Notes: generated from the sequence alone by a model not told the origin. A DNA stretch of 64,000 nt from an uncultured Gammaproteobacteria bacterium (GCA_964401485.1 CAYNYL010000001.1:67834-131833); one strand, 5' to 3'; counted from the stretch's first letter, positions 1-47,520 are shown. Translations and numbers: made by a program.

Positions 1-282
1 GATGGCGAGTTTTTTGTTTGCGGCGTCGAGGAGGTCGATGCCGAAGTCGTGCGACATGAGCACGACCCAGTAAAGCACGTCGGCAAGCTCCTCGCCGATC
101 GCCTCGCGCTTTGCTTCGACATGCGCGTTAAGCTCCCCTTCCTTCTTCCACTGAAACAGCTCGAGCGTTTCGGTCGCTTCAAGGACAAGCGACAACGCCA
201 TGTCCTTCGGGTTGTGGAACTGCTTCCAATCCCGCGCTTCCCGTATCGCAAGGACTTTCTCTCTATATTCGTCGAGGGTCAT
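1..282 (-). CDS. MazG-like nucleotide pyrophosphohydrolase; 5' part only, the 3' end runs off the window
   Basis: Minus-strand translation from the ATG at 282..280 reads MTLDEYREKVLAIREARDWKQFHNPKDMALSLVLEATETLELFQWKKEGELNAHVEAKREAIGEELADVLYWVV, which matches the MazG/YpjD EExxD motif region. The ORF continues to position 1. Confidence 0.55.
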   Translation of the reverse strand, partial: MTLDEYREKVLAIREARDWKQFHNPKDMALSLVLEATETLELFQWKKEGELNAHVEAKREAIGEELADVLYWVVLMSHDFGIDLLDAANKKLAI

Positions 283-283
283 A

Positions 284-721
284 CTAATTTCCTGCCGATA
301 GAATCAAGGCAAACAGAATGAAGAAGACAAGGTAGTATCCCGACTGGATCCCGAAGCGCATCCAAGCGATTCGCCGGGAATCATTCGTCCACATACTGTT
401 TCCGGCAAGAACGGGAACGACAAGCGCAAGCCAAACGAGAACGGCGAGATACACCGAGAGAAGCGTGTCGCTCGCGGGCGTGACAACCTGATTAAATAGC
501 ACCGCTTGAAAGAGCGCGAGAACGAAGGCAACGCCGTAAAGAGGCATCGCCTTTTTTTGCATCTGTGCCCGCTTTTCCGGGGTCATGCCCTTTACCCCAA
601 TAATCTCCTCCCACTGCTTTGAGAAGAGGACGCCGTACCAAACCGTCCCGAGAACCATAGACGCAACCGCGCAGGCAAGGACCGCAAGTAGATTGATTTC
701 CATATAGATCCATCCTAGCAC
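284..721 (-). CDS. small integral membrane protein, DUF1761-like
   Basis: The 145-aa ORF has several hydrophobic helices. A likely internal start, MEINLL, lies at 703. Confidence 0.45.
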   Translation of the reverse strand: MLGWIYMEINLLAVLACAVASMVLGTVWYGVLFSKQWEEIIGVKGMTPEKRAQMQKKAMPLYGVAFVLALFQAVLFNQVVTPASDTLLSVYLAVLVWLALVVPVLAGNSMWTNDSRRIAWMRFGIQSGYYLVFFILFALILSAGN

Positions 722-768
722 ACTTGATTTTTCTGCAAAAACCGGCTACTTTTGGTCCGGAGGTGAGC

Positions 769-1143
769 ATGGCTTTAACGCCTTTGTCTTGCACGATTGT
801 CTGCGATCGCAAAGACACCGAACGGAGGGTGCGCTTGACGCTCAACAAGCGCACGTGCACCGCTTACCTCGAGTCGAGCCTCTACTCGAAGGACGAGGGG
901 CATCTCGGGTCCCAAACGACCGTCTGCACCTTCGCCGAGCTCGCCCTCGCGCTTGCGTCGGCGATCCCCTGCGGAGAAGGAGCGAACGAGCACTTGATCC
1001 AACTCGAAGAATGCGCGTCGACGCGCTCCCGGAAGCGGGCGCGAACGAAGAAGCTCTCGGAGTGGAAGTCGTTCCCAACCGAGTGGATCCGTCGCGTCGA
1101 GGACGCGCTCGGAGTCTACGTCGAAGAGTCCGTCGCGGCGTAA
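769..1143 (+). CDS. hypothetical Cys-containing protein in a GC-rich island
   Basis: The ATG is at 769 and GGAGGTG sits 2-10 nt upstream. Composition is balanced. The overlapping minus ORF 775..1449 is R/S/L-rich, as expected of antisense. Local GC is about 60%, against about 48% for the core. Confidence 0.4.
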   Translation: MALTPLSCTIVCDRKDTERRVRLTLNKRTCTAYLESSLYSKDEGHLGSQTTVCTFAELALALASAIPCGEGANEHLIQLEECASTRSRKRARTKKLSEWKSFPTEWIRRVEDALGVYVEESVAA

Positions 1144-1192
1144 CCGTGACTCCTCCCCGTCTCCCCCGCCAGCCTCACCGCTGGCGGATTTT

Positions 1193-1633
1193 TTATGTGA
1201 TGTTGAAGCACCAAAGAATGAGCCCGCCCCACCACCCAATAATCGAAATACAGAAGCTGATCGTCGTAACAAATTTCCAAGTTGCGGGAAGGAGCTCGCT
1301 CGCCCGACCTTCGCGCTCTCGTTTAAGAAGGCGCGGACTGAGCCAAAAACTGAGCCACGAACCGTTAAGAACGAGGACGACCGCGATGACTGCGTGAACC
1401 TGAACGACGCCAACAAACGGCTCTCCAAGATAGATCCAAGCACTCGCAAGAATCACAAGAATCATTCCGATCCAAATAAGGGGCTTCGTTACCCGGTGCG
1501 CGCGAATCGTCGCTTCGGTAAAATAGGGCGAACGCTGACCGAGAAATCCAAGGGTCTCGATAACGCTAACGGCACCAAGTCCAATAATGAACCCGGCGAA
1601 GAGAAGAAAAAGCTGGGCGGTAGTAATCTCCAT
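1193..1633 (-). CDS. hypothetical polytopic membrane protein
   Basis: The 146-aa ORF has four predicted transmembrane helices. No named family was recognised. Confidence 0.45.
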   Translation of the reverse strand: MEITTAQLFLLFAGFIIGLGAVSVIETLGFLGQRSPYFTEATIRAHRVTKPLIWIGMILVILASAWIYLGEPFVGVVQVHAVIAVVLVLNGSWLSFWLSPRLLKREREGRASELLPATWKFVTTISFCISIIGWWGGLILWCFNIT

Positions 1634-1695
1634 ATCCCTTAGTATAGCGCACTTGCTATTCCCTGGCTCTCCGATAAGCTAGGAAGGGGGTGCCC

Positions 1696-2040
1696 ATGTC
1701 AAACGAGGATATGATCCGTCTTTGGCAGGATTGCCACCAATTGCGTACGAGTTCAGGACTCCTCACCTGCTACTTGCAACTCAGGGTCGACCTTGCGGGT
1801 CGGCGGGTTGAGATCACAAACGACTCCTATCTCGCCGAAACCCGAATCCTCTTCTTCCGGATCGACACGGCCCTCGAAAACGTACTCGAGGCGATGAAGC
1901 GCCGGGAAACCGCGAGATTCAACCACTCCTTCCTTGACGTGCCCGTCGAATCGCAAGCCGGGTCTCGTCTCTGGCTCATGGTGTGTAGCGACTGGCTCGA
2001 CGAGCTAGAAGCCTTCGTCGCAACCCACCGCGCCCCGTAG
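1696..2040 (+). CDS. hypothetical protein P1, first gene of the orphan trio
   Basis: ATG at 1696 with an AGGAAGGGGG RBS at 1681-1690. The reading frame is closed immediately by the terminator at 2041. Confidence 0.5.
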   Translation: MSNEDMIRLWQDCHQLRTSSGLLTCYLQLRVDLAGRRVEITNDSYLAETRILFFRIDTALENVLEAMKRRETARFNHSFLDVPVESQAGSRLWLMVCSDWLDELEAFVATHRAP

Positions 2041-2080
2041 CCCCGCGGCTCTCTCGAGCTTGCGGGGCGTCGCTTTTTCT
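2041..2080 (+). terminator. intrinsic terminator, copy A, and 5' part of the duplicated cassette
   Basis: A CCCCGCGG...CTTGCGGGG stem is followed by CGTCGCTTTTTCTC. Confidence 0.6.
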
Positions 2081-2087
2081 CTAGACC

Positions 2088-2136
2088 TTGCCAAAACCCG
2101 GGTAAAATGCTAAAAATTCATGTCGCTTGAAGGAGG
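2088..2136 (+). promoter_or_regulatory. sigma70-like promoter plus RBS of P2, cassette copy A
   Basis: TTGCCA at 2088-2093, a 17-nt spacer, then TGcTAAAAA as an extended -10 at 2108-2116. AGGAGG at 2131-2136 lies 9 nt before the ATG at 2146. Confidence 0.5.
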
Positions 2137-2145
2137 CGACTACCA

Positions 2146-2826
2146 ATGTTCAACCCGCCCTTTTTCTACACGCTGATCCGGTTTCCGGAGTTTGAGATCG
2201 CAATCGCTGGCGACAACACCGTCCAAGTTCGCGCATCCGGTAACGCCGGGGGAGGACTGCGGATCGAGTGGACGGACCATTTGCAACGATTTTCGAACGC
2301 ACTCCGTACCGCCGTTCGACTACAGGATATAGGTCGCTACTCGATCGGCCTCCCGAGCAACTTGAAGTGGGCGGTCGATAACGGCGATCGCTTCGGGGAG
2401 GAGCGCTGGGCCGGCCTACCTCCCATTTTCTCCCTTACCCCAACGGACGATGAGTACACGGAGATCAACAAGCTCTTCGGCGAGTCGCTCAATAGTTATA
2501 ACCGCTTCGGTACCCAAGAACCGGTCGGCGCGATCGGAATTGCCTCTTGTAGGAAGTTCGATCTGGTCGCGGTCTTCGAGGACTGCCACGAAGAATCCGG
2601 TCACATTCGTACGGATTGGATCGGCCCACGCTCAGTGTTTGCCGATTCCGCGAAGAACTCTCCCGAGGACGATCCCAAAAACAGGTTGGTCGTCATTCTC
2701 CCCAATGGCCGAACGATCGCTCCCGACGGCGTCGGTGAAGACACCTGCCCGAAAACGACGATAGGACCGGTCGCCTTTCGATTCAGGGAAGATCGGTTAG
2801 GTTCGCTGACGAAGTACCTGATCTAG
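2146..2826 (+). CDS. hypothetical protein P2, paralog of P3
   Basis: 226 aa. The N-terminus FEIAIAGDNTVQVRASGNAGGGLRIEW aligns with P3 FGISAKNRFQVRCEEEAGAGVRWEW. A shared (D/R)WIGP motif is also present. Confidence 0.55.
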   Translation: MFNPPFFYTLIRFPEFEIAIAGDNTVQVRASGNAGGGLRIEWTDHLQRFSNALRTAVRLQDIGRYSIGLPSNLKWAVDNGDRFGEERWAGLPPIFSLTPTDDEYTEINKLFGESLNSYNRFGTQEPVGAIGIASCRKFDLVAVFEDCHEESGHIRTDWIGPRSVFADSAKNSPEDDPKNRLVVILPNGRTIAPDGVGEDTCPKTTIGPVAFRFREDRLGSLTKYLI

Positions 2827-2860
2827 CTGAACGCTGGCGCATTCCCGCTTTCGCCCCCTG

Positions 2861-2967
2861 CCCCGCGGCTCTCTCGAGCTTGCGGGGCGTCGCTTTTTCT
2901 CTAGACCTTGCCAAAACCTCGGTAAAATGCTAAAAATCCTTGTCGCTTTAGGAGGCGACTACCAATG
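2861..2967 (+). repeat. cassette copy B: terminator, promoter, RBS and ATG, near-identical to 2041..2148
   Basis: The 107-bp segment differs from copy A at only about 6 positions. It has the same CCCCGCGG hairpin, TTGCCA at 2908-2913, TAAAAA at 2931-2936, AGGAGG at 2951-2956 and the ATG at 2965. Confidence 0.7.
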
Positions 2968-3615
2968 TACGAGCTCTTTTTTCACTTTATCGTCAAGCCC
3001 GGAATCACCTTCGGCATCTCTGCGAAGAACCGTTTTCAAGTCAGGTGTGAAGAAGAGGCTGGAGCGGGAGTGCGATGGGAGTGGCGCGGAAGTTTGGAAG
3101 AACTCGCAAGCGCGATCAAAGACTCAAAGACACTCGACGAGTCCATGCCGATCGCCTACCACTTCTGGAACAGCGTTGTCCTTAACGAAGGCGAATCCAC
3201 CTTCGAAGACTCCCTCGAAGACTGGTCGAACAGGCCAAAGGCGATCGCTACGACCGTCTTTCTCGAAGACCCGGAGGAGAACCGTGATCTCGACGCCACG
3301 CTCCGACGATTCCTCGAGAGTCGACCGACGTTCGCCAAGGTGGACCATGCGGATGGCTCCGTGTACATATGCGAAGAGCTCCGTCTCATCCAGATCGACG
3401 GTGTGGTCAAAGATCATCTCGGCTTCGTCGTTCACCGCTGGATCGGTCCGATCAAGACCATCCTCGATCAAATCAACCCGATCGAAACAGAGAGAATTCT
3501 CTTGGGCTGGTACGGCCTTAACCTCGCCGACATGCGCGACCCAACGACATCCCTCAAGTTCGAGATCACGATGGACCGCGTCGAGCACCTACTCCTTGTC
3601 CTTCGCTCAGCCTAG
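2965..3615 (+). CDS. hypothetical protein P3, paralog of P2
   Basis: 216 aa with its own copy of the cassette upstream. It is followed by the terminator at 3629-3666. Confidence 0.55.
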   Translation: MYELFFHFIVKPGITFGISAKNRFQVRCEEEAGAGVRWEWRGSLEELASAIKDSKTLDESMPIAYHFWNSVVLNEGESTFEDSLEDWSNRPKAIATTVFLEDPEENRDLDATLRRFLESRPTFAKVDHADGSVYICEELRLIQIDGVVKDHLGFVVHRWIGPIKTILDQINPIETERILLGWYGLNLADMRDPTTSLKFEITMDRVEHLLLVLRSA

Positions 3616-3628
3616 CGACCAAGCCCCT

Positions 3629-3666
3629 CCCCGCCCTCTTTCAAGTCGGCGGGGTTTCCCTTTTCC
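3629..3666 (+). terminator. intrinsic terminator after P3
   Basis: A CCCCGCC...GGCGGGG stem followed by TTTCCCTTTTCC. Confidence 0.55.
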
Positions 3667-3695
3667 GTTGACCAAACCGCCCTCCCCTGCTATAC
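3667..3695 (+). promoter_or_regulatory. sigma70-like promoter for the tRNA pair
   Basis: TTGACC at 3667-3672, a 17-nt spacer, TATACT at 3690-3695. The tRNA begins 13 nt downstream. Confidence 0.55.
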
Positions 3696-3707
3696 TGCCC
3701 CCACAAA

Positions 3708-3794
3708 TGCCGTGGTGGCGGAATGGTATACGCGACGGACTCAAAATCCGTTTCCCTAACAGGATTGAGGGTTCGAGTCCCTCCCACGGTACCA
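3708..3794 (+). tRNA. tRNA-Leu, anticodon CAA, with encoded CCA
   Basis: The acceptor stem is GCCGUGG, the anticodon loop CUCAAAA, and there is a long variable arm. It ends ...CCCACGGUACCA. Confidence 0.85.
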
Positions 3795-3798
3795 AAAT

Positions 3799-3875
3799 GG
3801 CTGGGTAGCTCAGTTGGTTAGAGCGAGGGACTCATAAGCCCTAGGTCGTGGGTTCGATTCCCACCCCCGCCACCA
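3799..3875 (+). tRNA. tRNA-Met or tRNA-Ile2, anticodon CAU, with encoded CCA
   Basis: GGCUGGGUAGCUCAGUUGGUUAGAGC, anticodon loop CUCAUAA, T-arm GGUUCGAUUCC, then CCA. Confidence 0.85.
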
Positions 3876-3949
3876 AAAAGTCGTCCTTTTACAGGGCGAT
3901 TTTTTGTTTATTTTTTAGCTGATTTTAGCCTTTTTTAATCATTTTGCCC

Positions 3950-3978
3950 TTGACATTTTCCAAAAAATATGGTATGGT
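3950..3978 (+). promoter_or_regulatory. strong sigma70-like promoter driving the non-coding transcript
   Basis: TTGACA at 3950-3955, a 17-nt spacer, TATGGT at 3973-3978, with TAATAC as an alternative -10. The region has an AT-rich UP-like upstream stretch. Confidence 0.5.
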
Positions 3979-3984
3979 AATACT

Positions 3985-4497
3985 TCGTTGGAACAGTGCC
4001 TAATGCCCTGTAAACTAACGAAATCCGGAAACGTCGGAGGTACAATGTACCAGAAGCCGTTCCTCTAATAGGGTCAAAGCCCTTCCCTTCCTGCCGGGGG
4101 CTCATCTCGTCGGCAGGCGTGATCGCTTGGATCATGGTATCAACTCAACCAAGCCTCCTTGACCAGGAGTAAATCGGTCGGAGCATTCATGCTCGATCAA
4201 TAAAAACCTTCCTCCTCGCGGATACGGCGAGAATCGGAAGGGCTACATACACAGTATCCGGGGGTTACACTACCTCGACAACTCGAGCTCGGCTGGGTAA
4301 AGAACGGCGCTAATTGCGGGCCTAGTACTTACACGAAGAGTGAACCTGGTGACAGGTGAATCGAGACGTCGACCTCGTCAGGGTCGAACTAAACGGTTAC
4401 GTGCCGATTTCGTCTGAAGTCGGTTCGTCCAGAACGCCCGATCTACTCGGGCTTTGTGAACGCCAAACGACTCGCCTTTACGGCGGGTCTTTTGTTT
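3985..4497 (+). ncRNA. unassigned structured RNA of about 510 nt; a divergent RNase P RNA is possible
   Basis: Only one short alt-start ORF crosses this stretch in any frame. It is bounded by the promoter above and by a terminator, GACTCGCC..GGCGGGTC followed by TTTTGTTT, at 4469-4497. GAAAUCCGG near 4018 and ACAGUAUCCGGGGGUUA at 4251-4267 resemble the two P4 strands of RNase P RNA. Confidence 0.35.
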
Positions 4498-4622
4498 ATA
4501 TGAACCCGAGTTTCCTCCCTTCAACCATGCGATCACAGATACTTCCCAAAATATGAGGACAGGTAGGCATTTTTAAAACCAGCTTGTGATCGGACCCCCT
4601 ATTTCGCGGGACAGACGCCCTC

Positions 4623-5114
4623 CTATAAAACGAACCGTCCAGAAATCGTAAGAAACGTAACGATGGCTCCTGAACACAAGAGTCCAAAAAGAATACCCGC
4701 AAACGCTTGCCGCACTGGAATTTTTAGCGCAACAGCCGCGAGTGTCGCGGTATAAAGTCCCGTTAAAGGAAGTGGGATCCCAACAAAAACCGCAAGGGCC
4801 CAAGCCCCATACCGAGCAAAATGGCCCGATACTTTTCGCTCTGCCCGTAGGACAAGGTGGTCAAGAAACCGAACACTCCACGGCGCGACCTTCTCAAGAA
4901 TTTTGCGAAACGTTGCGAGCCCAAAATATAGTGGAAAAAATGGAATCAGATTACCAAGAATCGCAAGACAAAATACCGTAACAGGGCCCATGTTCCAATG
5001 AAGAATCCCAACAGGAATTGCAAGACGAAGTTCCCCAATAGGAACAGCACCAAGAAGAATGACCGCGAGTTCGCGAGGCACACCCTCAAGCGCTAAAACA
5101 ATTGCCTCTTTCAT
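4623..5114 (-). CDS. putative small multidrug-export membrane protein (Sm_multidrug_ex / COG2426-like)
   Basis: MKEAIVLALEGVPRELAVILLGAVPIGELRLAIPVGI matches the family N-terminus. Four transmembrane segments are predicted. Confidence 0.5.
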   Translation of the reverse strand: MKEAIVLALEGVPRELAVILLGAVPIGELRLAIPVGILHWNMGPVTVFCLAILGNLIPFFPLYFGLATFRKILEKVAPWSVRFLDHLVLRAERKVSGHFARYGAWALAVFVGIPLPLTGLYTATLAAVALKIPVRQAFAGILFGLLCSGAIVTFLTISGRFVL

Positions 5115-5115
5115 A

Positions 5116-6075
5116 TTATTCCCAAGAAAACACATCAAACACCCACTCCGCAAGCGCTTTTACGTCCGTCTCACGATCCGTCTTTGTTTCCGCCCCAAGC
5201 GCCGCAATATAGACCTTGTGCCCGTCCTTCTCAACGGCGCTCGTAAGAACATAGCCCGCCTGCGGAAGATACCCTGTCTTCCCCGCTGTAATCGCAAATG
5301 GAGGCTCCGCAAGATAACTCGCAAGAAGTTGATTCGTATTATCAACCGTAATCACCGCCCCGCTTCCCTGCCTGATGGTTGCCGTAGCAGTTGTCATCGC
5401 TTCTTGAAGCACGTCGTACGTTTCCGCCGTCCGCAAAAGTTTAATCATGTCGCGCGCCGTTGAGGTATTCTCGCTACGAATTCCGGTAGGATCAACAAAG
5501 GTTGTCGAGGTCATCCCGAGCTCCCGCGCCTTCTCGTTCATCTTCGCAACAAACGCCTCCTTTTCCATCCCAGAAAATCGCACGAGCGACTCCGTCGCCG
5601 TATTGTCCGATCCGACAATTGCCGTCGTAAACACGTCCGCAAGCTCCGTCTCGTCAAAATAGTTTAGGTAGAGTCGTCCTCCCCCAACGTAATCGTCGGG
5701 TGTGAGCGTCACCTCTTTTGTTAACTCAGGTTTTGCCTCTAAAAAGACGATCGCCGTCATGAGCTTTGTAACGCTCCCGATCGAGCGCACGTCGTCCGGA
5801 CGCCGTCCAATCATCATCATTTCCGTCACCCCATCCTCAACGATAATGCTTCTCGCAGAAGTAAAAACGCCGAGCGCCTCCTTCTTCACTTTCTTTGGGT
5901 ACGCTGGCGCAAATGGACCAAAAAGCGACGCAGGAACTCCCGTCCCTCGCTCTGGTAAAAAGGTCTCAACGGAAGCGGTTCGCGTATACGCCGACTCTAA
6001 ATCAGCAATATCTGTTTTCAGGTACTGCTTATAAAAGAGCGAGCTCGCAAGATCGTGGATTAGGGTGTCAAACAT
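5116..6075 (-). CDS. D-alanyl-D-alanine carboxypeptidase (serine-type; PBP5/class A beta-lactamase fold)
   Basis: SxxK (SVTK), SxN (SDN) and KTG motifs are present in the correct order. The start is at MFDTLIHD, adjacent to the scpB stop. Confidence 0.7.
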   Translation of the reverse strand: MFDTLIHDLASSLFYKQYLKTDIADLESAYTRTASVETFLPERGTGVPASLFGPFAPAYPKKVKKEALGVFTSARSIIVEDGVTEMMMIGRRPDDVRSIGSVTKLMTAIVFLEAKPELTKEVTLTPDDYVGGGRLYLNYFDETELADVFTTAIVGSDNTATESLVRFSGMEKEAFVAKMNEKARELGMTSTTFVDPTGIRSENTSTARDMIKLLRTAETYDVLQEAMTTATATIRQGSGAVITVDNTNQLLASYLAEPPFAITAGKTGYLPQAGYVLTSAVEKDGHKVYIAALGAETKTDRETDVKALAEWVFDVFSWE

Positions 6076-6076
6076 A

Positions 6077-6604
6077 TTACGAAGCCATGTCTTCAAGCAT
6101 CTTATCAATTTTTGCGTAAGAATGTAACTTTTCGTAGTCCGGCAATTCTTCAACGCGGGTCAGCCCAAGATATTTAAGTGTGTCGCTTGTAAGGCGATAG
6201 CGGGGCTCAAGATCCGTGTCATCTTCATCGATAAGTCCACGGATAAGAAGGTTGCGTAAAATAAGCGATGAATTGACGCCTCGAATCGTCTCGATTTCCG
6301 CCTTTCCGATCGGGCCTCGGTAGGCAATAATCGTCAGCGTTTCAAGTTGCGGTCGTGTAAGCGGGGCCTCTTCGGCCTTGCCCGTAAGCGACGCGAGAAC
6401 TTCGGAAGCCTCGGGCGCAGTCACGAGTTCAAGTGCGTCGTCGAGCTCCTGAAGCCGAATACCCGACCCCTCGCCAAACTTTTCTCGGAGCGAAGCAACA
6501 AGAGCTTCAAGTTCTTCACGAGAACAGGAAAGAAGTTTTTCGAGCTCGCGTTTTTTGACCGGTCGCCCAAGATGAAAGAGTACCGCCTCAAGAAGATGTG
6601 TCAT
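6077..6604 (-). CDS. scpB: segregation and condensation protein B
   Basis: 175 aa with winged-helix ScpB signature sequence. Overlaps scpA by 4 nt. Confidence 0.8.
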   Translation of the reverse strand: MTHLLEAVLFHLGRPVKKRELEKLLSCSREELEALVASLREKFGEGSGIRLQELDDALELVTAPEASEVLASLTGKAEEAPLTRPQLETLTIIAYRGPIGKAEIETIRGVNSSLILRNLLIRGLIDEDDTDLEPRYRLTSDTLKYLGLTRVEELPDYEKLHSYAKIDKMLEDMAS

Positions 6605-7290
6605 AGCGCTTGAATAAGAATATGTTGCTTAGAGTGTTGTTCAGCGATAACGACCTGCCTTCGGACAAGCTCGAGAAGCGCAAGGAAACTAACGACCACT
6701 TCCGCGCGACTTTTCGCTCCCCGCACAAGATCTTTAAAGGCAAATGATTTTCGCGCAAGGATCGCTCGCTCGAGCTCCTTCATCCGTACCTCAATCGAGA
6801 CAACTTTTTCCATGGTCGTTTCTTGCAACGCGAAAAATGGTTCGAGCCGTTTAATAATGGACAAAAAGAGCCGATGAAGATTTCCCGTCGTTACCGCGTC
6901 CGTTGGCGCAAACCGCACCGCCGTCTCCTTCTTTCGGACAATCTGCCTCGACCAAAGCACCCGCTTTCCAAAAAGCGCAACGATCTTTTCCGCCGTCTCG
7001 CGAAACATCGCGTAGAGCCGAAGTTGTTCCTCAAGACTCCCCTCCTCTTCTTCGACCGAAAGGTCCGGAAGAAGCTCGATGCTTTTAAGATGGATGAGGC
7101 GAGAAGCGGTCACGAGAAAATCCGCCATCTCCTCGGGAAGGATTTTCTGCCCCTCAACGTAGCGCAAAAAATCATCCGCGATCCGCGCAAGATTCACCTC
7201 GGTAATTTCGAGCTGTTTCTTCTTAAGGACATCAAGAAGAAGCGCAAGCGGCCCCTCAAACCGTTCCTGTTTAATCGCAAAAAGAGACAT
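6601..7290 (-). CDS. scpA: segregation and condensation protein A
   Basis: 229 aa kleisin. ScpA-ScpB is the conserved gene order. Confidence 0.8.
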   Translation of the reverse strand: MSLFAIKQERFEGPLALLLDVLKKKQLEITEVNLARIADDFLRYVEGQKILPEEMADFLVTASRLIHLKSIELLPDLSVEEEEGSLEEQLRLYAMFRETAEKIVALFGKRVLWSRQIVRKKETAVRFAPTDAVTTGNLHRLFLSIIKRLEPFFALQETTMEKVVSIEVRMKELERAILARKSFAFKDLVRGAKSRAEVVVSFLALLELVRRQVVIAEQHSKQHILIQAL

Positions 7291-7332
7291 GGCCCAAGTA
7301 TAGCAGAAAACGAGGCTTTCGCCCCGTTTTTC

Positions 7333-8730
7333 CTAGTCTTTTGAAATCGAGAGACCGAGCTCGCGAAGTTGCTTTGGTGGAAGTGGCGAAGGAGCATCCA
7401 TAACGGCCGTCTGCGCATTTCCGGTCATCGGGAAGGCCTGCGTTTCGCGAAGGGCCGATTCGCCGGTCATGTTCATCACGTTTCGCTCGACTCCAAGCGC
7501 GATTCCTCCATGTGGTGGCGCACCGTACTCGAACGCGTCGATCATGTGACCCACCGACTCTTGAATCTCTTCGTCCGAGTAGCCCATGTTCTTGTAGGTC
7601 GCGCGAAGAATCTCCGGACGATGGGCGCGGATCGATCCGCCTCCCGCCTCGTACCCGTTACAAACGAGATCGTACTGTGTCGTAAGAATGTTCTCAATAT
7701 TTGTTCCGTTCATGTGGTCGTCGAGGTGCTCCGGCTTTGGCATCGAGAACGGATTGTGCGTAAACGTCCAACCACCTTCATCATTTTTCTCAAAGAATGG
7801 GAAGTCGACAACCCATGCGTACGCAAGCACTCCGTTCGCCTTATCCTCTTCCGTTCGAAGATCGAACTTGTCGGCGCCATACTTCGCCATCGACTCTTGG
7901 TACGTAACGCGCGGGAACGGCTTGTACTTAACGGTGTAGCCAAGCTTTTCGACCGTCTCGATCACCATCCCCTCAACCATATTCATGACATCTTCTTGCG
8001 TCACAAAGCTCATCTCGATATCGATTTGTGTGTGCTCAAATCCGCGGTCCGCGCGTGGATCCTCGTCGCGAAGCGCGCGAGCCGTTTGGAAGTAACGCTC
8101 AAATCCCCCAACCATCAAAAGTTGTTTGTATTGCTGTGGGGACTGTGGAAGTGCAAAGAATTTTCCAGGTTGCAAACGGGAAGGAACAACGAAATCGCGC
8201 GATCCTTCCGGTGTCGCTTTCGAAAGAAGCGGAGTTTCAATTTCGCAAAATTGATTCTTGAAAAGATACTCGCGCGCCCCTTGGATAAAGCTACTCCTAA
8301 GTCGCATGTTGCGCTGGAGACGCTCGGTACGAAGATCAAGATAGCGATACTTAAGTCGTGTCTCTTCATTGATCCCTGCCGTATCCTTGTCGAGCTCAAA
8401 CGGCGGCGTCTTCGCCTCGTTTAACACGGTGATTTTCTTCACCATAAGCTCAACCGTTCCCGACTTCATGTTCGGGTTGACCTGCTTTTCTCCGCGCGCC
8501 TGAACCACGCCCTCAATTTCAACCACCCACTCGCTTCGAAGCGTTCCGGCAACCGCGTCCGCTTCTTCGCCCGACTCGCTTGGAACAACAACGAGCTGGA
8601 GAAGCCCGTCTTTATCGCGAAGGTCGAAAAATTTAACCTTTCCCATGTCTCGGCGAGCGTGAATCCACCCCGCCACTTTTACCGTTTCCCCCACCTTCGT
8701 AACCGTCTCGGACGTCATGATTCTTTGCAT
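7333..8730 (-). CDS. aspS: aspartyl-tRNA synthetase, short archaeal/eukaryal type without the GAD insertion
   Basis: FALPQSPQQYKQLLMVGGFERYFQ and the class II motifs are present. 465 aa, against about 590 for the bacterial type. Confidence 0.85.
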   Translation of the reverse strand: MQRIMTSETVTKVGETVKVAGWIHARRDMGKVKFFDLRDKDGLLQLVVVPSESGEEADAVAGTLRSEWVVEIEGVVQARGEKQVNPNMKSGTVELMVKKITVLNEAKTPPFELDKDTAGINEETRLKYRYLDLRTERLQRNMRLRSSFIQGAREYLFKNQFCEIETPLLSKATPEGSRDFVVPSRLQPGKFFALPQSPQQYKQLLMVGGFERYFQTARALRDEDPRADRGFEHTQIDIEMSFVTQEDVMNMVEGMVIETVEKLGYTVKYKPFPRVTYQESMAKYGADKFDLRTEEDKANGVLAYAWVVDFPFFEKNDEGGWTFTHNPFSMPKPEHLDDHMNGTNIENILTTQYDLVCNGYEAGGGSIRAHRPEILRATYKNMGYSDEEIQESVGHMIDAFEYGAPPHGGIALGVERNVMNMTGESALRETQAFPMTGNAQTAVMDAPSPLPPKQLRELGLSISKD

Positions 8731-8744
8731 AGAATATAGCTACT

Positions 8745-9554
8745 TTACCTAGTTTGCCTTGGAATATCAAGCCCTACGCTCGCAAGAAGCCCCTCCCAAA
8801 AAGGCGCCCGCTCGTAGCCTGGCAAATGGAGCATCATAAGATCATGGACGATTTTTGCGTGTGATTCGATATGCTCTTTTTTAAGGGACGGAAGGAGCGC
8901 ATCCGCAAAACTCTGGTCACGCGAGACCCGAAGAAGCGTAATCACCTCCTCGTCGATACGAGTCGCGGAAAACCATTCCCGCTCGTCCTTTTTCGCACAA
9001 TCCGTACAAATAAGACCTCCTTTTCCGCCATGCCAACGAAACGACAACGGCACAATCTCGTCATGACAAGAAAGGCATTCGCGTAGAGCGACCTCGTATC
9101 CAAGACGCTTCATGAATTTAAGAAGAAACCCCCCGAGAAGATATGTCGCGCGCGTAATCGAGAGCTCGTCTTCTTGATCAAGAAACGATAGCCAATCAAG
9201 AACAAATTGATAGAGCCCCGGATCATGTTCATCTTCGTGCGTATAACGATTCACAAGCGCAAGCGACGCGCCCGCGAGAAGCCGACGCTCAAGCGACCTC
9301 GTAAACGCGCGATAGCGATGGAGCCCATCAACCGCAATAACGGTTGTCGATCGCCGTCCGCGGATCACCTCTAGCGCCACAACACCAAACGGCTCGAGGT
9401 GCGACGCGAGCTTCGCCTGCATCTTCTGCGCCCCGCGCCCCGTTACCCGAATCTTCCCGTAATCTGCTGTAAGAATCGCGTACTGCCTATCCGACTCAAA
9501 CACCGGCGCAACCTGTAGTACAACCCCTTCGGTCTTCAGGCTCGCCCAAGACAT
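8745..9554 (-). CDS. recO: DNA repair protein RecO
   Basis: N-terminal OB fold and a C-terminal CxxC...CxxC zinc motif (CLSCHDE...CTDC). Confidence 0.8.
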   Translation of the reverse strand: MSWASLKTEGVVLQVAPVFESDRQYAILTADYGKIRVTGRGAQKMQAKLASHLEPFGVVALEVIRGRRSTTVIAVDGLHRYRAFTRSLERRLLAGASLALVNRYTHEDEHDPGLYQFVLDWLSFLDQEDELSITRATYLLGGFLLKFMKRLGYEVALRECLSCHDEIVPLSFRWHGGKGGLICTDCAKKDEREWFSATRIDEEVITLLRVSRDQSFADALLPSLKKEHIESHAKIVHDLMMLHLPGYERAPFWEGLLASVGLDIPRQTR

Positions 9555-29651: not shown

Positions 29652-31073
29652 TTAGCTCGAAACCGGCGCGCGCCTGACTCGACGCCTGCGATCAACGGGA
29701 GACGAGGACTCGTCCTCTTCTTGAATGAGCTTGTCCCACTCCTCAAGCGTATCCTTCGGAAGTACCGCCCTGAGAAACCCAAGAACCCGAGCACGCTCAC
29801 GGATTCCATGGTTATCGTCAAGTTTCGACCACTCGGTAGAAAGGTGATTCCATACCGTAATGGTGATCACTTCGCAGCGATTGATCACGGTACGCCCCCT
29901 AACGACATGCTCAATCGTTCCAAGCACCTTCGCGTCGCTGTACTCATCACTACGCAACTTGTGACCGGCGTTATGCTCGTTCGACTCGATCTTCGTGAGT
30001 CGGAACGGCAGTTGAGAAAACAGCCGCTCCGCGATCATCTGATTGAAGTTCGCTCGGTCGGCGTGCGTCGGGAGACGGAATGCGCCAACCTCCTCGATCG
30101 CAACGAGGACAAACTTCCCACCAACACCATCCTTCATCAGACTATCCCGCAGGTCCTCCGAAGTGAGAATCCCCTCTTCGTCGATCTTGCGTTCAGTCTT
30201 CATGATGCTCGAGAGCAGTTCTTTCGCTCTCGGATCGCAAAACACCCAGTATCGAACACCGTTAATGAGCATCGTCGCTCGGCAACGGAACTCCTTCACT
30301 CGGACGCGCTTCCTACGACGACCGCGCTGGGCCGCCCACTCACGCGCAAGGCTGTTATCCTCAAACAACCTCACGTTCTGTGGAACAAGCCCCTCCTTGT
30401 CACCCTTTCGAATGCCGGCGATGCGCCCGGTTACGGGATTGCACTCCGCCGCAATCGAAAACCTCCGTTCGAGTCCCGGTTCCAGAATGCGCTCGTCCCA
30501 ACCACTCTGCAAAACATCAACCGCAAGCGCGCGAAGCGAGAAAGGGTCGGCGTGATCAGCAAAGAACCGCGCGATCGTAAAGGCGAGTTTGAACCGCGCG
30601 TGAAGCGGAACAAGCCTCGACCACTCGCCGTCACCCGGAGGTGAGGCGATTTGTTGCATCAGCCTCACCGGGTCCACGTTGGACTTCACCTGGTTGTTGA
30701 AGTCGAGAGCGGGAAGGATAGACCGCAAATCACCCTCAAGCGCAATCATCCTCAAATCAGACTTGTGTCTGACCGTAATCTGACCAAGACGCGCCACCAG
30801 CCATTCCGCACCGGTCGCTCGTAGCGGAGCCGCCGCACGATCACCCGGGGGCAATCGTGACCGCAGAAAAGCGACGCGAACCTCGACGCCCGTCTTGATT
30901 CGCTCAAACATCGCGTAGGCAAGACGCGGATCCGCAATCTCCACCACGATATCAAAGAGTGCGAGTTCATCACCTCCATTCTCGAGAAACTCAGGTCCAA
31001 GCTCCTCAAGGATGACCTCGATCCACCGAACCTTGTACGGCGGGAACTGCTCCACCGGATCGATGATACGCAT
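29652..31073 (-). CDS. large orphan protein of 473 aa in a GC-rich insert; function unknown
   Basis: Long uninterrupted ORF. Local GC is about 57%, against about 48% for its neighbours. It lacks a P-loop, a YxDD motif and a tyrosine-recombinase signature. The C-terminal tail is Arg-rich. Confidence 0.55.
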   Translation of the reverse strand: MRIIDPVEQFPPYKVRWIEVILEELGPEFLENGGDELALFDIVVEIADPRLAYAMFERIKTGVEVRVAFLRSRLPPGDRAAAPLRATGAEWLVARLGQITVRHKSDLRMIALEGDLRSILPALDFNNQVKSNVDPVRLMQQIASPPGDGEWSRLVPLHARFKLAFTIARFFADHADPFSLRALAVDVLQSGWDERILEPGLERRFSIAAECNPVTGRIAGIRKGDKEGLVPQNVRLFEDNSLAREWAAQRGRRRKRVRVKEFRCRATMLINGVRYWVFCDPRAKELLSSIMKTERKIDEEGILTSEDLRDSLMKDGVGGKFVLVAIEEVGAFRLPTHADRANFNQMIAERLFSQLPFRLTKIESNEHNAGHKLRSDEYSDAKVLGTIEHVVRGRTVINRCEVITITVWNHLSTEWSKLDDNHGIRERARVLGFLRAVLPKDTLEEWDKLIQEEDESSSPVDRRRRVRRAPVSS

Positions 31074-44979: not shown

Positions 44980-45606
44980 ATGAACCGCAACCACATCCGC
45001 TATAACTACTACCGCTTCTGGTACTGGTATGGCGGACTCCCCTGGATCCTTCGTCAGATCGTCGCGACAGCCGTCTTCTACGGGCTGACGTACCTGCTGG
45101 TCGGTCACTCGACCGTCCGGTGCTTCGTCGATGGCGAGGAAGTCGTCGGTCAGTGCCGAGTCCTGAACTTCAAGGGTGAGGAGATCGGAACCGCACCGCT
45201 GACGCGTCGACTCGAGTTCGGCTGGGGAACCGTTACCGTCTACCCACCCAAGGACGCCGTCGTCAACACGGAATACATCGGGTGGGGCTGGATCTCGACC
45301 GGCATCGGGAACGACATCGGCGCCTTCCTCGGAGTGACCCCACCATTCGATGCGCGATTCGAGACGCTCGAGGCGCAGACGCACATCACCTGCACCGTCA
45401 ACGGCGACCCCCAGAACTGCGAGGTGGAGCTCAACGGCAGTCACCTCGGAGTAACGCCAGTCGAGCAGGCGCTCGGCGTCGGCGAGTTCCGGGTCACCGT
45501 CTACCCGCCCGACTGGGCGGAGACGACAATCGCCCATCAGGAATGGACACTCGCAAGCCCGAACGGCGAAGGCCAGAACCTCGTCGCCGAGTTCGAGGGT
45601 TTCTAA
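44980..45606 (+). CDS. membrane-anchored protein with two PEGA-like repeats, in a GC-rich insert
   Basis: GGAGG RBS. One N-terminal transmembrane helix. Internal repeat ...G.TP.......G...VTVYPP(K/D)... occurs twice. GC is about 62%. Confidence 0.55.
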   Translation: MNRNHIRYNYYRFWYWYGGLPWILRQIVATAVFYGLTYLLVGHSTVRCFVDGEEVVGQCRVLNFKGEEIGTAPLTRRLEFGWGTVTVYPPKDAVVNTEYIGWGWISTGIGNDIGAFLGVTPPFDARFETLEAQTHITCTVNGDPQNCEVELNGSHLGVTPVEQALGVGEFRVTVYPPDWAETTIAHQEWTLASPNGEGQNLVAEFEGF

Positions 45607-45616
45607 CTTCTCGACA

Positions 45617-45672
45617 CCAACGGCCCCGCTGCCGGCAAGACACCTCGTGTCTCTCGCTGGCGCGGGGTGTTT
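45617..45672 (+). terminator. GC-rich intrinsic terminator after the PEGA gene
   Basis: CCCCGC...long imperfect stem...GCGGGG followed by TGTTTTGTT. Confidence 0.45.
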
Positions 45673-45704
45673 TGTTATGCTACGGTTTCTTTCGAGGAGG
45701 GTTC

Positions 45705-46067
45705 ATGCCAAATTTTCAGGGAATTCTTCAGTTCCTTTTAGAGGCGGTAGAACTTCAACTTCGTCTTACAATCGAGTGCCTCCTGGATCTCAAGGCGCGA
45801 ATGCGTCAGTTCACCCGAGGTGATCAGCTGGCGCACTACCGTGCCGACACCCCCTGGACCGGACCATCGATAGACCTGCTGTCCCAACTCATTCCGCTCG
45901 AGAAAGCTCGCAGGAGACATCGCGCAAGGCGCCGATCACTTCTTCGGCTCGCGCGCGCGATCCGGTCAACGCTACGGCGCCATCACGTCGTGCGTCCAAC
46001 GGTCGAGCACTACATCGGTCGGATGGAGCGACTCCACCCGCAATTCTTCACCCCTCGCTTCTCGTAG
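45705..46067 (+). CDS. hypothetical Arg-rich protein of 121 aa
   Basis: The ATG is preceded by GAGGAGGG. The ORF track's longer 45282 version comes from an overlapping frame. Confidence 0.4.
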   Translation: MPNFQGILQFLLEAVELQLRLTIECLLDLKARMRQFTRGDQLAHYRADTPWTGPSIDLLSQLIPLEKARRRHRARRRSLLRLARAIRSTLRRHHVVRPTVEHYIGRMERLHPQFFTPRFS

Positions 46068-46166
46068 CCGGGGGTTTTCGTTTTTCATGAAAATAAAAGA
46101 CGCCGGCCGTGAATCAGCCGACGTACACACGAACGCCCCGGGCTCAGATGAACCTGGGGCGAGAAA

Positions 46167-46781
46167 CTAGAGACGCTCGGAGCGCCGGATGCGCAGGGAA
46201 CGGTGGATACGATCGACCAACGGAAACCGCCGAGCAACGAACGCCTGGAGCGTAGGGATGATCTGTCCCTTTGCCGACGACCGGTCGAGATGGACCGTCT
46301 CGATCGTCACCTGACCGAGATGGTCCTCGGCGTAAATCGCGACCTTGAGAGCGCGTAGCGTATCACAGAAGATGACGACCTCTCGCTCGCCCTCGGCAAC
46401 CCCCCTGTCACGCAGAATCTGCGCGGCATTCGAAAGATTATCGGGCGTAGTATAAGCGTCATCATCGAGGATGCAACGCGCACCGATCCCGGGCGCACGG
46501 CGGCCGATCTGATCCCGCATGAGATCCGCCTCGGACTCACCGGGCGCCGACAGCCGCTGCGTATATCCCCCGCTCACAATGATGAAATCCGGATTCCACT
46601 CCCGAGCAAACTGCACCACTCGGTCAAGGTACCGCTCCAAACCGGGCGACACATAACACCCATACCCGCACACAAGAAGCACCTTCTTCACAACCGCCTC
46701 CAAAGCAATCCTTCTCTCACCACCAAGACTATCTTGATGATGAAAGCTAGACGGGCCGGCGGCAGAAAGCCACCGACCCAC
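46167..46781 (-). CDS. DUF218 (YdcF/ElyC/SanA-like) domain protein
   Basis: VLLVCGYGCY...IIVSGGYTQ...ESEADLMRDQI pattern. The start is GTG. GC-rich. Confidence 0.5.
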   Translation of the reverse strand: MGRWLSAAGPSSFHHQDSLGGERRIALEAVVKKVLLVCGYGCYVSPGLERYLDRVVQFAREWNPDFIIVSGGYTQRLSAPGESEADLMRDQIGRRAPGIGARCILDDDAYTTPDNLSNAAQILRDRGVAEGEREVVIFCDTLRALKVAIYAEDHLGQVTIETVHLDRSSAKGQIIPTLQAFVARRFPLVDRIHRSLRIRRSERL

Positions 46782-46808
46782 GTGTTCGGAATGCGTCGAC
46801 TCCGTAAC

Positions 46809-47426
46809 CTACCGGAAGGCACGCAGAATGATGTCGAGCCCAAAATCACCGAGCTCCTCGCGAATCCGCGCAAACTCCTCTGGCTCCTCGAGCCCCAAGC
46901 CGCACTCCTTCGCTTCAGCGACAAGTCGCCACAGCGTACGAAGATCCTCGATCGGAAGATCCGGCAAATCGGCCGTCGTCTTCCGGAAGTCGTTCACCAG
47001 CTGCTTCAGTGAGAAGTAGACGTGCGGCATGCGCTCGATCGTTCCGTCGTCGAAGGCCTTGCAGATGTTGCCGTGCGGCACCTCTTGGTGCTCATTGCAC
47101 CCGTGCAAGCGGAAGCAAGACTTCGTGACGAATTCCCCCGTACCCGCGCGGACCAGCTTGTCGACCACATCCCCGAAGGTCTGACAGATCGGAAGATCCG
47201 TGATCTTGGAGATGATTTCCTCGGCCTCAAGCGCGGTGATTTCACCCGCGCTCAAAATGTCATGAATCTTCGCGAACCCGACCTCGCGGGAGCTGATGAC
47301 AAGGTTTCGGATCTTGCCGGTCTTGATGCTCTCGACCGCCAGAGCGAACGTCCGAACCCCAGCCTGGTTCAAAAATGACGCCCGAACCAGCTCAAACATT
47401 GCCCAACCCATGACAAACTCCATGCG
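46809..47426 (-). CDS. hypothetical Cys/His-containing protein
   Basis: The start was chosen at MEFVMGW, at 47426, because positions upstream of it are occupied by the trxA terminator hairpin at 47487-47520. Confidence 0.4.
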   Translation of the reverse strand, partial: RMEFVMGWAMFELVRASFLNQAGVRTFALAVESIKTGKIRNLVISSREVGFAKIHDILSAGEITALEAEEIISKITDLPICQTFGDVVDKLVRAGTGEFVTKSCFRLHGCNEHQEVPHGNICKAFDDGTIERMPHVYFSLKQLVNDFRKTTADLPDLPIEDLRTLWRLVAEAKECGLGLEEPEEFARIREELGDFGLDIILRAFR

Positions 47427-47486
47427 ACTTCCCCGGGTCGCGGATGAGAAAATGAACGTAGGGGAAAAAGGAAGATAACAAAAAAG

Positions 47487-47520
47487 ACGCCGGCCGTCAA
47501 CGGGCAAGCGTCTCTTTTAT
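47487..47520. terminator. bidirectional intrinsic terminator after trxA
   Basis: AGACGC..17 nt..GCGTCT has T-runs on both sides. Its 3' half is the 16-mer that is repeated at 46098. Confidence 0.55.

Follow-up and report, generated by a model that had tools for sequence, protein, structure and literature searches.

Why should the DNA in front of two genes be conserved far better than the genes themselves? This question is raised by a 64,000-nt stretch of DNA from an uncultured Gammaproteobacteria bacterium (GCA_964401485.1, CAYNYL010000001.1:67834-131833), the whole of which we refer to as the window. Near its left end, a non-coding cassette of about 110 nt is repeated almost unchanged before P2 and P3, two homologous orphan genes that lie in tandem behind a third, P1, and that have diverged almost beyond recognition. 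We think it fairly probable that the locus is a lineage-specific tandem array of fast-evolving orphan paralogs and that the cassettes are their duplicated intergenic control regions.

The repeated cassette and the genes behind it

A repeat search aligned 2040-2128 with 2860-2948 (96%, ungapped) and 2131-2149 with 2950-2968 (100%). When 2039-2148 and 2859-2967 were aligned globally, 103 of 110 columns were identical, and the part that the two cassettes share exactly is 59 nt long. A first-pass annotation made from the window alone had described near-identity over about 107 bp, which is correct; across that span the copies differ by five substitutions and one 1-nt indel. With up to three mismatches tolerated, no third copy of either cassette half was found in the window, and no shuffled window contained two copies of either half.

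We considered whether the repeat is an assembly artefact. This was ruled out with Logan contigs from two other sequencing runs, which are 100% identical to the window and end at 2069 or start at 2889. These independent contigs are interrupted within the sequence that both cassettes share exactly, at the point where a graph with k=31 cannot continue if the 59-nt exact repeat is real, and the duplication is therefore not a product of assembly.

Each cassette is made up of three modules on the + strand, and both a consensus scan and the sequence itself bore out the order of hairpin, promoter, ribosome-binding site (RBS) and ATG that had been described before. Module A (2039-2081 in copy 1 and 2859-2901 in copy 2, 97.7% identical) is a terminator-like hairpin of a subtype that we call T1. 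It reads CCCCGCGGCTCTCTCGAGCTTGCGGGG and then CGTCGCTTTTTCT, with a stem of 11-13 bp (-24 kcal/mol) and 5-6 nt between the stem and a run of five or six T, and it has the palindromes CCGCGG and CTCGAG. After a gap of about 6 nt comes module B (2087-2117 and 2907-2937), a predicted sigma70-type promoter that the consensus scan reads as TTGCCA-17/18-TAAAAA(T) with TGC before the -10, matching 9/12 consensus positions. Its TTGCCA is at 2088-2093 in copy 1 and 2908-2913 in copy 2, and TGC-TAAAAA (2108-2116 in copy 1) follows at a -35/-10 spacing of 17 nt. Module C (2122-2140 and 2942-2959) is a predicted 5' untranslated region (UTR) hairpin, GUCGCUU/AGGCGAC, that was absent from the first-pass annotation and fills the 19 or 18 nt before the start region. 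In copy 1 it reads GUCGCUU-GAAGG-AGGCGAC. The Shine-Dalgarno (SD) sequence AGGAGG lies within its loop and 3' arm and ends 9 nt from the ATG; folding energies are -10.1 kcal/mol for copy 1 and -8.9 kcal/mol for copy 2. Folding z-scores of the two cassettes are -2.65 and -3.5. The substitutions between the copies are in the -35/-10 spacer, the discriminator and the UTR loop. The homology takes in the hairpin of the upstream gene and stops exactly at the start codon.

The genes behind the cassettes had been described as three tandem orphans. Their orphan status held up, but the unit is larger than three genes. It is an island of five genes that spans from ~720 to 3670, with four of them on the + strand: A124 (124 aa, 769-1143), P1 (114 aa, 1696-2040), P2 (226 aa, 2146-2826) and P3 (216 aa, 2965-3615). 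The fifth, on the - strand at 1193-1633, is an open reading frame (ORF) for a 146-aa predicted membrane protein that is also called as a gene in Logan contigs. A predicted promoter/RBS, cttgatttttctgcaaaa...ctacttt...ggaggtgagcATG, precedes A124 on the + strand (722-768), and a hairpin of a second subtype, T2 (CCCCGCCC...GGCGGGG, + strand, 3626-3668), closes the island. As had been pointed out, the block is GC-rich (0.54-0.57 against ~0.50 in the rest of the window) and sits directly upstream of tRNA genes, tRNA-Leu(CAA) and tRNA-Met (3709-3875, + strand).

P2 and P3 are clearly homologous, and the earlier estimate of about 20-25% identity was accurate (BLASTP, 22% over 170 aa, E=2e-8). A codon alignment of the two gave 41.8% nucleotide identity, 37.5% identity at third positions, a nonsynonymous divergence (dN) of 1.04 and a synonymous divergence (dS) of 1.48, which is saturated. 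The pair is thus not a recent duplication, in which nucleotide identity above 80% would be seen, and P3 is best described as a deeply diverged paralog of P2. An identical P3 gene is present in an independent Logan contig. Logan assemblies are the only recorded source of the exact P3 and A124 sequences, whereas P1 and P2 are in the NCBI record; in the deposited genome P3 and A124 may be unannotated or may have been given other starts.

The related island in a second genome

A HMMER search of 1.84 billion representative proteins with a profile of P2 and P3 returned three matches, namely P2, P3 and a 229-aa protein, P0003 (E=1e-32, 40% identical to P2). P0003 is encoded on an 18.6-kb contig of the metagenome-assembled genome (MAG) GCA_964491425.1, here called locus L002. 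The flanks of L002 are collinear with the window. On the left is a DUF1761 gene. On the right, both genomes have tRNA-Leu(CAA) and tRNA-Met as a conserved border, ~0.5 kb of non-coding, ncRNA-like DNA, Sm_multidrug_ex and a D-Ala-D-Ala carboxypeptidase (penicillin-binding protein), followed by ScpB, ScpA, AspRS, RecO and on to SecY. The flanks have 82% DNA identity over 9 kb (blastn) and their proteins are 74-97% identical. Among the flanking housekeeping orthologs dN is 0.02-0.20 and dS 0.4-1.8 (mostly 0.8-1.8), with third-position identity of 45-79% (most 45-58%), so that synonymous sites are near saturation. A search for further syntenic loci via the Sm_multidrug_ex protein found only the L002 genome among GTDB representatives and none in JGI metagenomes. 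Gene content at the two loci includes RNase Y (window), an archaeal-type ProRS, a 461-465-aa AspRS, ScpAB and the order SecY-Adk-Map. Because this content is atypical for Gammaproteobacteria, the Gammaproteobacteria label of the related MAG may be wrong.

The L002 island (130-3911) has seven co-oriented genes of 234, 128, 122, 124, 125, 148 and 229 aa, which we name by length (L_234 and so on). Recognisable orthologs in the two islands are A124 and L_125 (32.5%) and P2 and P0003 (39.6%). A124 matches L_125 (L002 2186-2563) at 35% in BLASTP (E=1.9e-10), and 32.5% is the global identity of this pair, with a dN of 0.84, a dS of 0.91 and dN/dS of ~0.9. The two genes have a promoter in common, the element at 722-768 being 82% identical to L002 2139-2191. 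P2 can be aligned with P0003 over its full length with few gaps (dN 0.60, dS 1.64, dN/dS ~0.37). P3 is 26% identical to P0003 over the N-terminal 69 aa (E=1.9e-4) and 28.7% in a global alignment. P1 holds the position that L_148 has in L002, and the sole link between their sequences is a C-terminal motif match (E=0.037). The 146-aa membrane protein has no counterpart in the L002 gene list and gave only a sub-threshold NCBIfam match.

When the two islands were compared by blastn, the intergenic modules alone aligned, at 78-92%. The observation that non-coding DNA is far better conserved here than the adjoining coding DNA, first made within the window, is therefore also true between genomes. Island pairs have a dN of 0.60-1.04 compared with 0.02-0.20 in neighbouring genes, which means that island coding sequences evolve 3-40 times faster than their neighbours. 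Strong diversifying selection on the coding sequences had been proposed from the contrast within the window. The fast rate is real, but positive selection cannot be demonstrated because dS is saturated and only three sequences are available.

The island genes also differ from their flanks in GC content at third codon positions (GC3), which is 0.69-0.81 in the window (A124, 0.81) and 0.62-0.77 in L002, compared with 0.46-0.58 in the flanks. This shift is common to the island genes of both genomes despite a flanking dS of ~1 or more. Because it persists in both lineages, we speculate that it reflects an ongoing process, for example biased gene conversion in a recombining region, rather than recent import. 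The annotated frames have the best codon score on the + strand, with the opposite-strand frame marginally higher at P2. Given these scores, the end-to-end alignment of P2 with P0003 and the GC3 values, the island ORFs are probably real genes. Two other candidates were rejected. The ORF at 2927-3808 (+) has a negative codon score (-0.356). The ORF at 3124-3588 (-) scores 0.225 compared with 0.24 for P3, as is expected opposite a real gene, and only P3 has a homolog.

We aligned the seven intergenic elements of both islands together. Module A follows each + strand gene of the window island from P1 on and four of the seven genes of L002. The hairpins are of two subtypes, T1 (CCCCGCGGCTC..CTCGAGCTTGCGGGG) and T2 (CCCCGCC.GCTC...GTCGGCGGGG), and CTCGAG is present in five of the seven. 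The modules are combined differently in the two genomes. Both T1 hairpins of the window stand before a promoter. L002 also has two T1 hairpins (848-917 and 2583-2652), each followed directly by an RBS unlike that of the window, without a promoter. Its single copy of modules B and C, upstream of P0003, is attached to a T2 hairpin (3114-3224), and the -35 and extended -10 blocks of module B are kept there at 3166-3197. The T2 hairpin that closes the window island is related to L002 3116-3143 and 3942-3968.

The two promoterless T1 elements of L002 are themselves a near-identical cassette pair, consisting of the T1 hairpin, a T-run and the RBS GTGYAGGAGGTTT, with 66/75 positions identical. They precede the paralogs L_128 and L_148, which are only 29% identical. 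Thus, the contrast between cassette and paralogs recurs independently in L002, in a pair of its own. Because these copies are without a promoter, the L002 hairpin may attenuate transcription rather than fully terminate it.

The hairpins are confined to the islands. CCCCGC-N8-24-GCGGGG was matched at three places in the window and at four in L002, in every case inside the island, and a search of the 9-kb left flank of the window found none except cassette 1. All seven hairpin copies are within one island of 3-4 kb per genome, with none in the other ~80 kb examined. No cassette copy was found outside the island in the window, the 9-kb left flank, the L002 contig, or the metagenome or viral collections, and neither the promoter module, scanned for as a DNA pattern in viral contigs, nor the hairpin, scanned for likewise in viral and metagenome contigs, had a single match. 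The suggestion that the cassette is mobile is thus unsupported, and in the sequence searched it is not a repeat scattered through the genome.

To judge what holds the modules constant, we compared their identity within and between genomes. Hairpins are 84-88% identical between genomes (84-86% for copy 1 compared with L002 848-889 and 2583-2624), and the promoter and UTR 82-87%. Since synonymous sites in the flanks are near saturation, these values indicate that the modules are under purifying selection on sequence, as judged from these alignments. In the promoter and UTR, the -35, GGTAAAATG-N-TAAAAAT, the UTR stem and the SD are invariant. Differences between copies are in the spacer, the discriminator and the UTR loop; the loop is 5, 4 or 3 nt long and the stem is identical in the three copies. 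Such a pattern is that of a predicted working promoter and a predicted structural RNA hairpin.

The hairpin has an additional property. Within genomes, copies differ at 1/43 sites in the window (97.7% identity) and 1/42 sites in L002 (97.6%), compared with 5-7 sites between genomes, and this within-genome excess is significant (Fisher p=0.003; binomial 3e-4) in module comparisons that cover 40-60 sites each and of which the four between-genome hairpin comparisons are non-independent. Paralogous copies also have genome-specific states in common, CTCTCTCGAG...GCGTCGCTTTTTC in the window and CTCCTCGAG...GCGCCGTTTTTTA in L002. Because the adjacent genes are only 22-29% identical with saturated dS, the hairpins have been homogenised and are not simply young. 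Most simply, this would have occurred by gene conversion or by unequal recombination between direct repeats. The promoter and UTR are 90.3% identical within the window, and their within-genome excess is insignificant (p=0.36). Of the idea that the cassette is a gene-converting regulatory module, the hairpin half therefore stands, whereas conversion is not needed to explain the promoter half.

It is conceivable, although rather unlikely, that purifying selection acted without any conversion and that the hairpin excess is chance in a small sample or reflects lineage-specific co-adaptation to a trans-acting factor. The insignificant excess in the promoter half would fit this, as would the location of copy differences at positions that are expected to be free (spacer, discriminator and UTR loop). 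However, both genomes independently have a single difference within compared with 5-7 between, and genome-specific states in paralogous hairpins are the classical signature of concerted evolution.

Possible origins of the array

Under the account that we favour, the array would occupy a variable island between the DUF1761 gene and tRNA-Leu(CAA). Module A would act as a terminator-like GC-rich hairpin that is found, in the examined sequence, only in the island; module B would be a sigma70-type promoter with an extended -10; and module C would be a very short 5'UTR with one hairpin that includes the SD and probably determines how fast the mRNA is translated and/or shields its 5' end. A unit of promoter, UTR, coding sequence and hairpin would have been duplicated to give P2 and P3 before the split from the nearest known relative. 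The identity of P3 to P2 (22%) does not exceed its identity to P0003 (26-29%), which means that the duplication is not recent and predates that split; an ortholog of P3 in L002 would have been lost or never sampled. The coding sequences would then have diverged almost to the limit of recognition as the control modules were held by purifying selection, and the hairpin would additionally have been homogenised in each genome by gene conversion or unequal recombination.

This mechanism is ordinary and mostly conventional, a known kind of evolution acting on orphan proteins. What is unusual is the isolation of the family, the sharpness of a contrast in which homology stops exactly at the start codon, the restriction of the hairpins to the island and the persistent GC3 shift. 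Expression signals and coding sequence are at opposite evolutionary extremes in a small space: a control region of ~110 nt is preserved and in part homogenised, and behind it the proteins change nearly beyond recognition and genes turn over. If more genomes from this clade become available, the locus could serve as a case for measuring non-coding gene-conversion tract lengths and for testing whether its orphans are in genetic conflict. We raise only tentatively, and regard as rather less than an even chance, the possibility that the island proteins are binding proteins in conflict with phage, host or competitor, which would explain both the fast change and the gene turnover.

Besides the size and non-independence of the module comparisons, several points weigh against this account. 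The island is known in two genomes, so every between-genome comparison is of one pair. Conversion is supported for ~43 nt only, given the result for the promoter half. A simple terminator consensus scan caught only a 5-bp sub-stem of module A, and the promoterless hairpin of L002, as far as its sequence suggests, could equally be an attenuator, a processing site or a terminator. P1 and A124 are untied by sequence to the other island proteins. Finally, the structure models of P1 and P2 that are described below, both with four antiparallel strands and then a helix, are of low confidence, with a predicted local distance difference test (pLDDT) score of 57-59.

A rival that we consider about as improbable as selection without conversion is that the cassettes mediate shuffling, in which case the modules would be portable homology arms through which strains exchange, gain or lose whole genes, and P3 or P2 would have arrived by homologous recombination instead of arising from an old duplication in place. 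The different module combinations (T1-promoter in the window, T2-promoter and T1 with a different RBS in L002) fit this. So does island gene content that is strongly unlike between genomes with collinear flanks, and the high GC3 of the island would fit frequent recombination or a separate gene pool. However, no recombinase, integrase or transposase is present among the genes checked on both sides, and the cassette was not found elsewhere in metagenome or viral collections. P2 and P3 are also paralogs of each other rather than unrelated cargo, and the Logan contigs, being 100% identical to the window, provide no population variant.

A further rival is that the cassette does more than control expression in the ordinary way and provides, for example, a small RNA, a leader of riboswitch type or a site for protein binding, which might be recognised by the island proteins. 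The hairpin is conserved in sequence as well as in structure and has the two palindromes, the folding z-scores are low, and P1 has a sub-threshold Pfam match to the translational repressor RegA (E=0.086). Against this, the terminator-like and UTR hairpins account for the folding signal, the gap between hairpin and promoter is too small to fit an independent transcript, none of the structural and Pfam leads reaches significance, and the cassette has no Rfam match at gathering score or at E<=1. We consider this very unlikely. The absence of an Rfam match and of a recombinase among the genes checked on both sides likewise leaves the earlier suggestion of a small RNA or recombination site unsupported.

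That P1, P2 and P3 form an anti-phage defence system is equally doubtful: the block is accessory, GC-atypical, variable and next to tRNA genes, with restriction-type genes (Eco57I/ResIII-type, NucS-like and PDDEXK) 1-9 kb to the left of the window start, but A124, P1, P2 and P3 match no PADLOC model (PADLOC-DB 2.0, E<=1), no enzymatic or nucleotide-binding domain was found in any island protein, the genes are paralogs rather than complementary components, and MazG-like and DUF1761 genes separate the island from the restriction-type genes.

The most novel picture, to which we give hardly more credence, is of a self-contained system. Here paralogous beta4-alpha, possibly Whirly-like, proteins would bind the CCGCGG/CTCGAG hairpins or the SD-bearing UTR hairpins and so control transcripts or translation, and this control would be coupled to a hairpin-guided, recombinase-free shuffling and homogenising of cassettes, in effect an integrase-less array under genetic conflict.

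The tandem paralog array that we favour can be compared with several known systems. The closest analogue in behaviour is the upstream homology box (UHB) family of Borrelia (ospE/ospF/erp), in which a near-identical promoter/RBS block is reported to stand before strongly diverged paralogs. Those genes are said to encode surface lipoproteins on multiple cp32 prophage plasmids of a pathogen, with homology that extends into the signal peptide, and recombination among the paralogs has reportedly been invoked. The likeness is in the near-identical upstream block before diverged paralogs. By contrast, the genes described here are chromosomal, tandem and predicted to be cytoplasmic, the homology stops at the start codon and a hairpin is included. 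A study of the Borrelia burgdorferi UHB gene family (Marconi et al., 1996, J Bacteriol 178:5615) is listed among the references of PMC10016077. There is no sequence relationship between the UHB family and the window locus.

Within-genome paralogous hairpins that are closer than orthologous copies between genomes resemble other cases of concerted evolution. Concerted evolution by gene conversion occurs in bacterial tuf genes, rRNA operons and intergenic repeats. The difference is that the tract here is a non-coding hairpin of ~43 nt (possibly up to 110 nt) and that coding DNA escapes completely. Repetitive extragenic palindromic (REP) elements are present in tens to hundreds of copies genome-wide, occur with RAYT transposases and can stabilise upstream mRNA. 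Like REP elements and BIMEs, the hairpins of the window and L002 are GC-rich, conserved and intergenic at gene 3' ends; unlike them, in the window, its 9-kb left flank and L002 they are restricted to the island and not dispersed. Integron arrays also have co-oriented small orphan genes that are each followed by a hairpin repeat very alike within a genome. However, here the stem is 11-13 bp, the genes are paralogous and two have their own promoter. No recombinase domain, such as an integron integrase would have, was found in the genes flanking the island (window, L002 and the left-flank contig), and neither GTTRRRY nor RYYYAAC, the attC cores, is present in the seven hairpin sequences. For a diversity-generating retroelement, there is no reverse transcriptase among the neighbouring genes and no pair of template and variable repeats, since no long repeat other than the non-coding cassette exists within 8 kb. 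For a tRNA-targeting integrative element, there is neither an integrase nor a repeat of tRNA sequence within 8 kb, and the island, being 5' of tRNA-Leu, is on the wrong side.

The island proteins and neighbouring features

The first-pass annotation had found no recognisable family for these proteins, and this was confirmed. P1, P2, P3 and A124 gave nothing above threshold with Pfam, NCBIfam, PHROG or PADLOC; below threshold, the Pfam match of P1 is to the RegA-type phage translational repressor family Translat_reg, and P3 matched phrog_30024 (E=0.019). Word-seeded searches of 5.8 billion clusters retrieved nothing beyond the query proteins, nothing matched among PDB sequence profiles, tblastn gave zero matches for P2 in phage genomes and for P3 in plasmids, viral contigs held no loci related to the P2 family, and an exact look-up of P2 in the assembly index gave no record. 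The locus thus adds an isolated family with three members among ~15 billion predicted proteins, and a related small family, from an uncultivated lineage.

This small family is in the L002 island. We ran leave-one-out hidden Markov models (HMMs) of it against 936 ORFs and recovered L_148 (7e-10), L_234 (2e-8), L_122 (4e-7) and L_128 (1e-3), with L_124 borderline (0.07). P1 (1.3) and A124/L_125 (2.7-4.2) were not recovered. L_148, L_128, L_122 and both halves of L_234 therefore make up a statistically supported family, with the C-terminal motif (I/F)PxEW(V/I)xxI. P3 was the best non-member match in most runs (E 0.012-0.13), and hhalign of the small family with the P2 family gave P=0.014 overall and 0.006 for the N-terminal half. 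These values only suggest that the small family is related to proteins of the P2 family in their N-terminal half. We also tried P1 and A124 as paralogs, and neither BLASTP (E=2.9) nor the leave-one-out HMMs support this. In L_234 (L002 130-834) the module of the small family has been duplicated in tandem; the family HMM detects it as two domains, with E=8e-31 and E=1e-24 when L_234 is included in the model, compared with 2e-8 when it is left out.

P1-P3 are acidic (isoelectric points of 4.9-5.3), and all island proteins are hydrophilic, with grand average of hydropathy (GRAVY) values of -0.2 to -0.8. Read directly from the sequences, P1-P3 have neither a hydrophobic N-terminus nor a membrane-spanning stretch, and they are predicted to be cytoplasmic. 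An AlphaFold2 (AF2) model of P2 from three sequences (pLDDT 57) has repeated modules of beta-strands plus a helix. The AF2 model of P1 from its single sequence (pLDDT 58.6) has four long beta-strands and a helix, then a linker that leads to a C-terminal helix. These low-confidence models suggest that P1-P3 probably consist of beta4-alpha modules, each with four strands and one helix. Foldseek searches gave only meaningless TM-scores (<=0.22) for the P2 model against the PDB and no viral structure with E<=0.001 for the P1 model. An internal repeat in P2 was considered and is unsupported (hhalign of the N-terminal with the C-terminal half, P=0.14). With its four antiparallel strands, helix and second helix, the low-confidence single-sequence model of P1 gives no more than a tentative structural lead to the beta4-alpha fold of Whirly, MRP1-MRP2 and SsgA-SsgB; however, P1 has too few residues in its second half to form another sheet of four strands, and there is no sequence similarity.

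Several features outside the island were noted. To the left of the window, positions 1-9500 of Logan contig SRR13355622_16424 (L005) encode a MazG-like protein, a DUF8426/NucS-like protein, a 1326-aa Eco57I/ResIII/T5orf172 enzyme, two proteins without a family and a PDDEXK_1 nuclease, a neighbourhood of restriction or defence type 1-9 kb from the island. Within the window, 29652-31073 (-) is a 473-aa ORF with no Pfam family in a GC-rich kilobase (GC 0.58), and 45000-47500 has a GC content of 0.59-0.61 and encodes a PEGA-domain protein, a DUF218 protein and two ORFs without a family. Neither region contains hairpins or proteins of the island type.

Directly after tRNA-Met is the ~510-nt non-coding stretch that occurs in both genomes (window 3950-4500, + strand; L002 ~4275-4900). 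Rfam searches found only tRNAs at gathering score and nothing credible at E<=1, and this stretch matched no family at E<=1 (window) or E<=5 (L002). It has a predicted strong promoter, TTGACA-17-TATGGT (3950-3978), a canonical terminator (4469-4489) and a minimum free energy of -189.7 kcal/mol (z=-4.1). At its 5' end ~90 nt, and at its 3' end ~110 nt, hardly differ from L002, and the middle is variable, with ~80 nt more in L002. At least one change in a stem keeps pairing, and the stretch is a candidate for a new large structured RNA.

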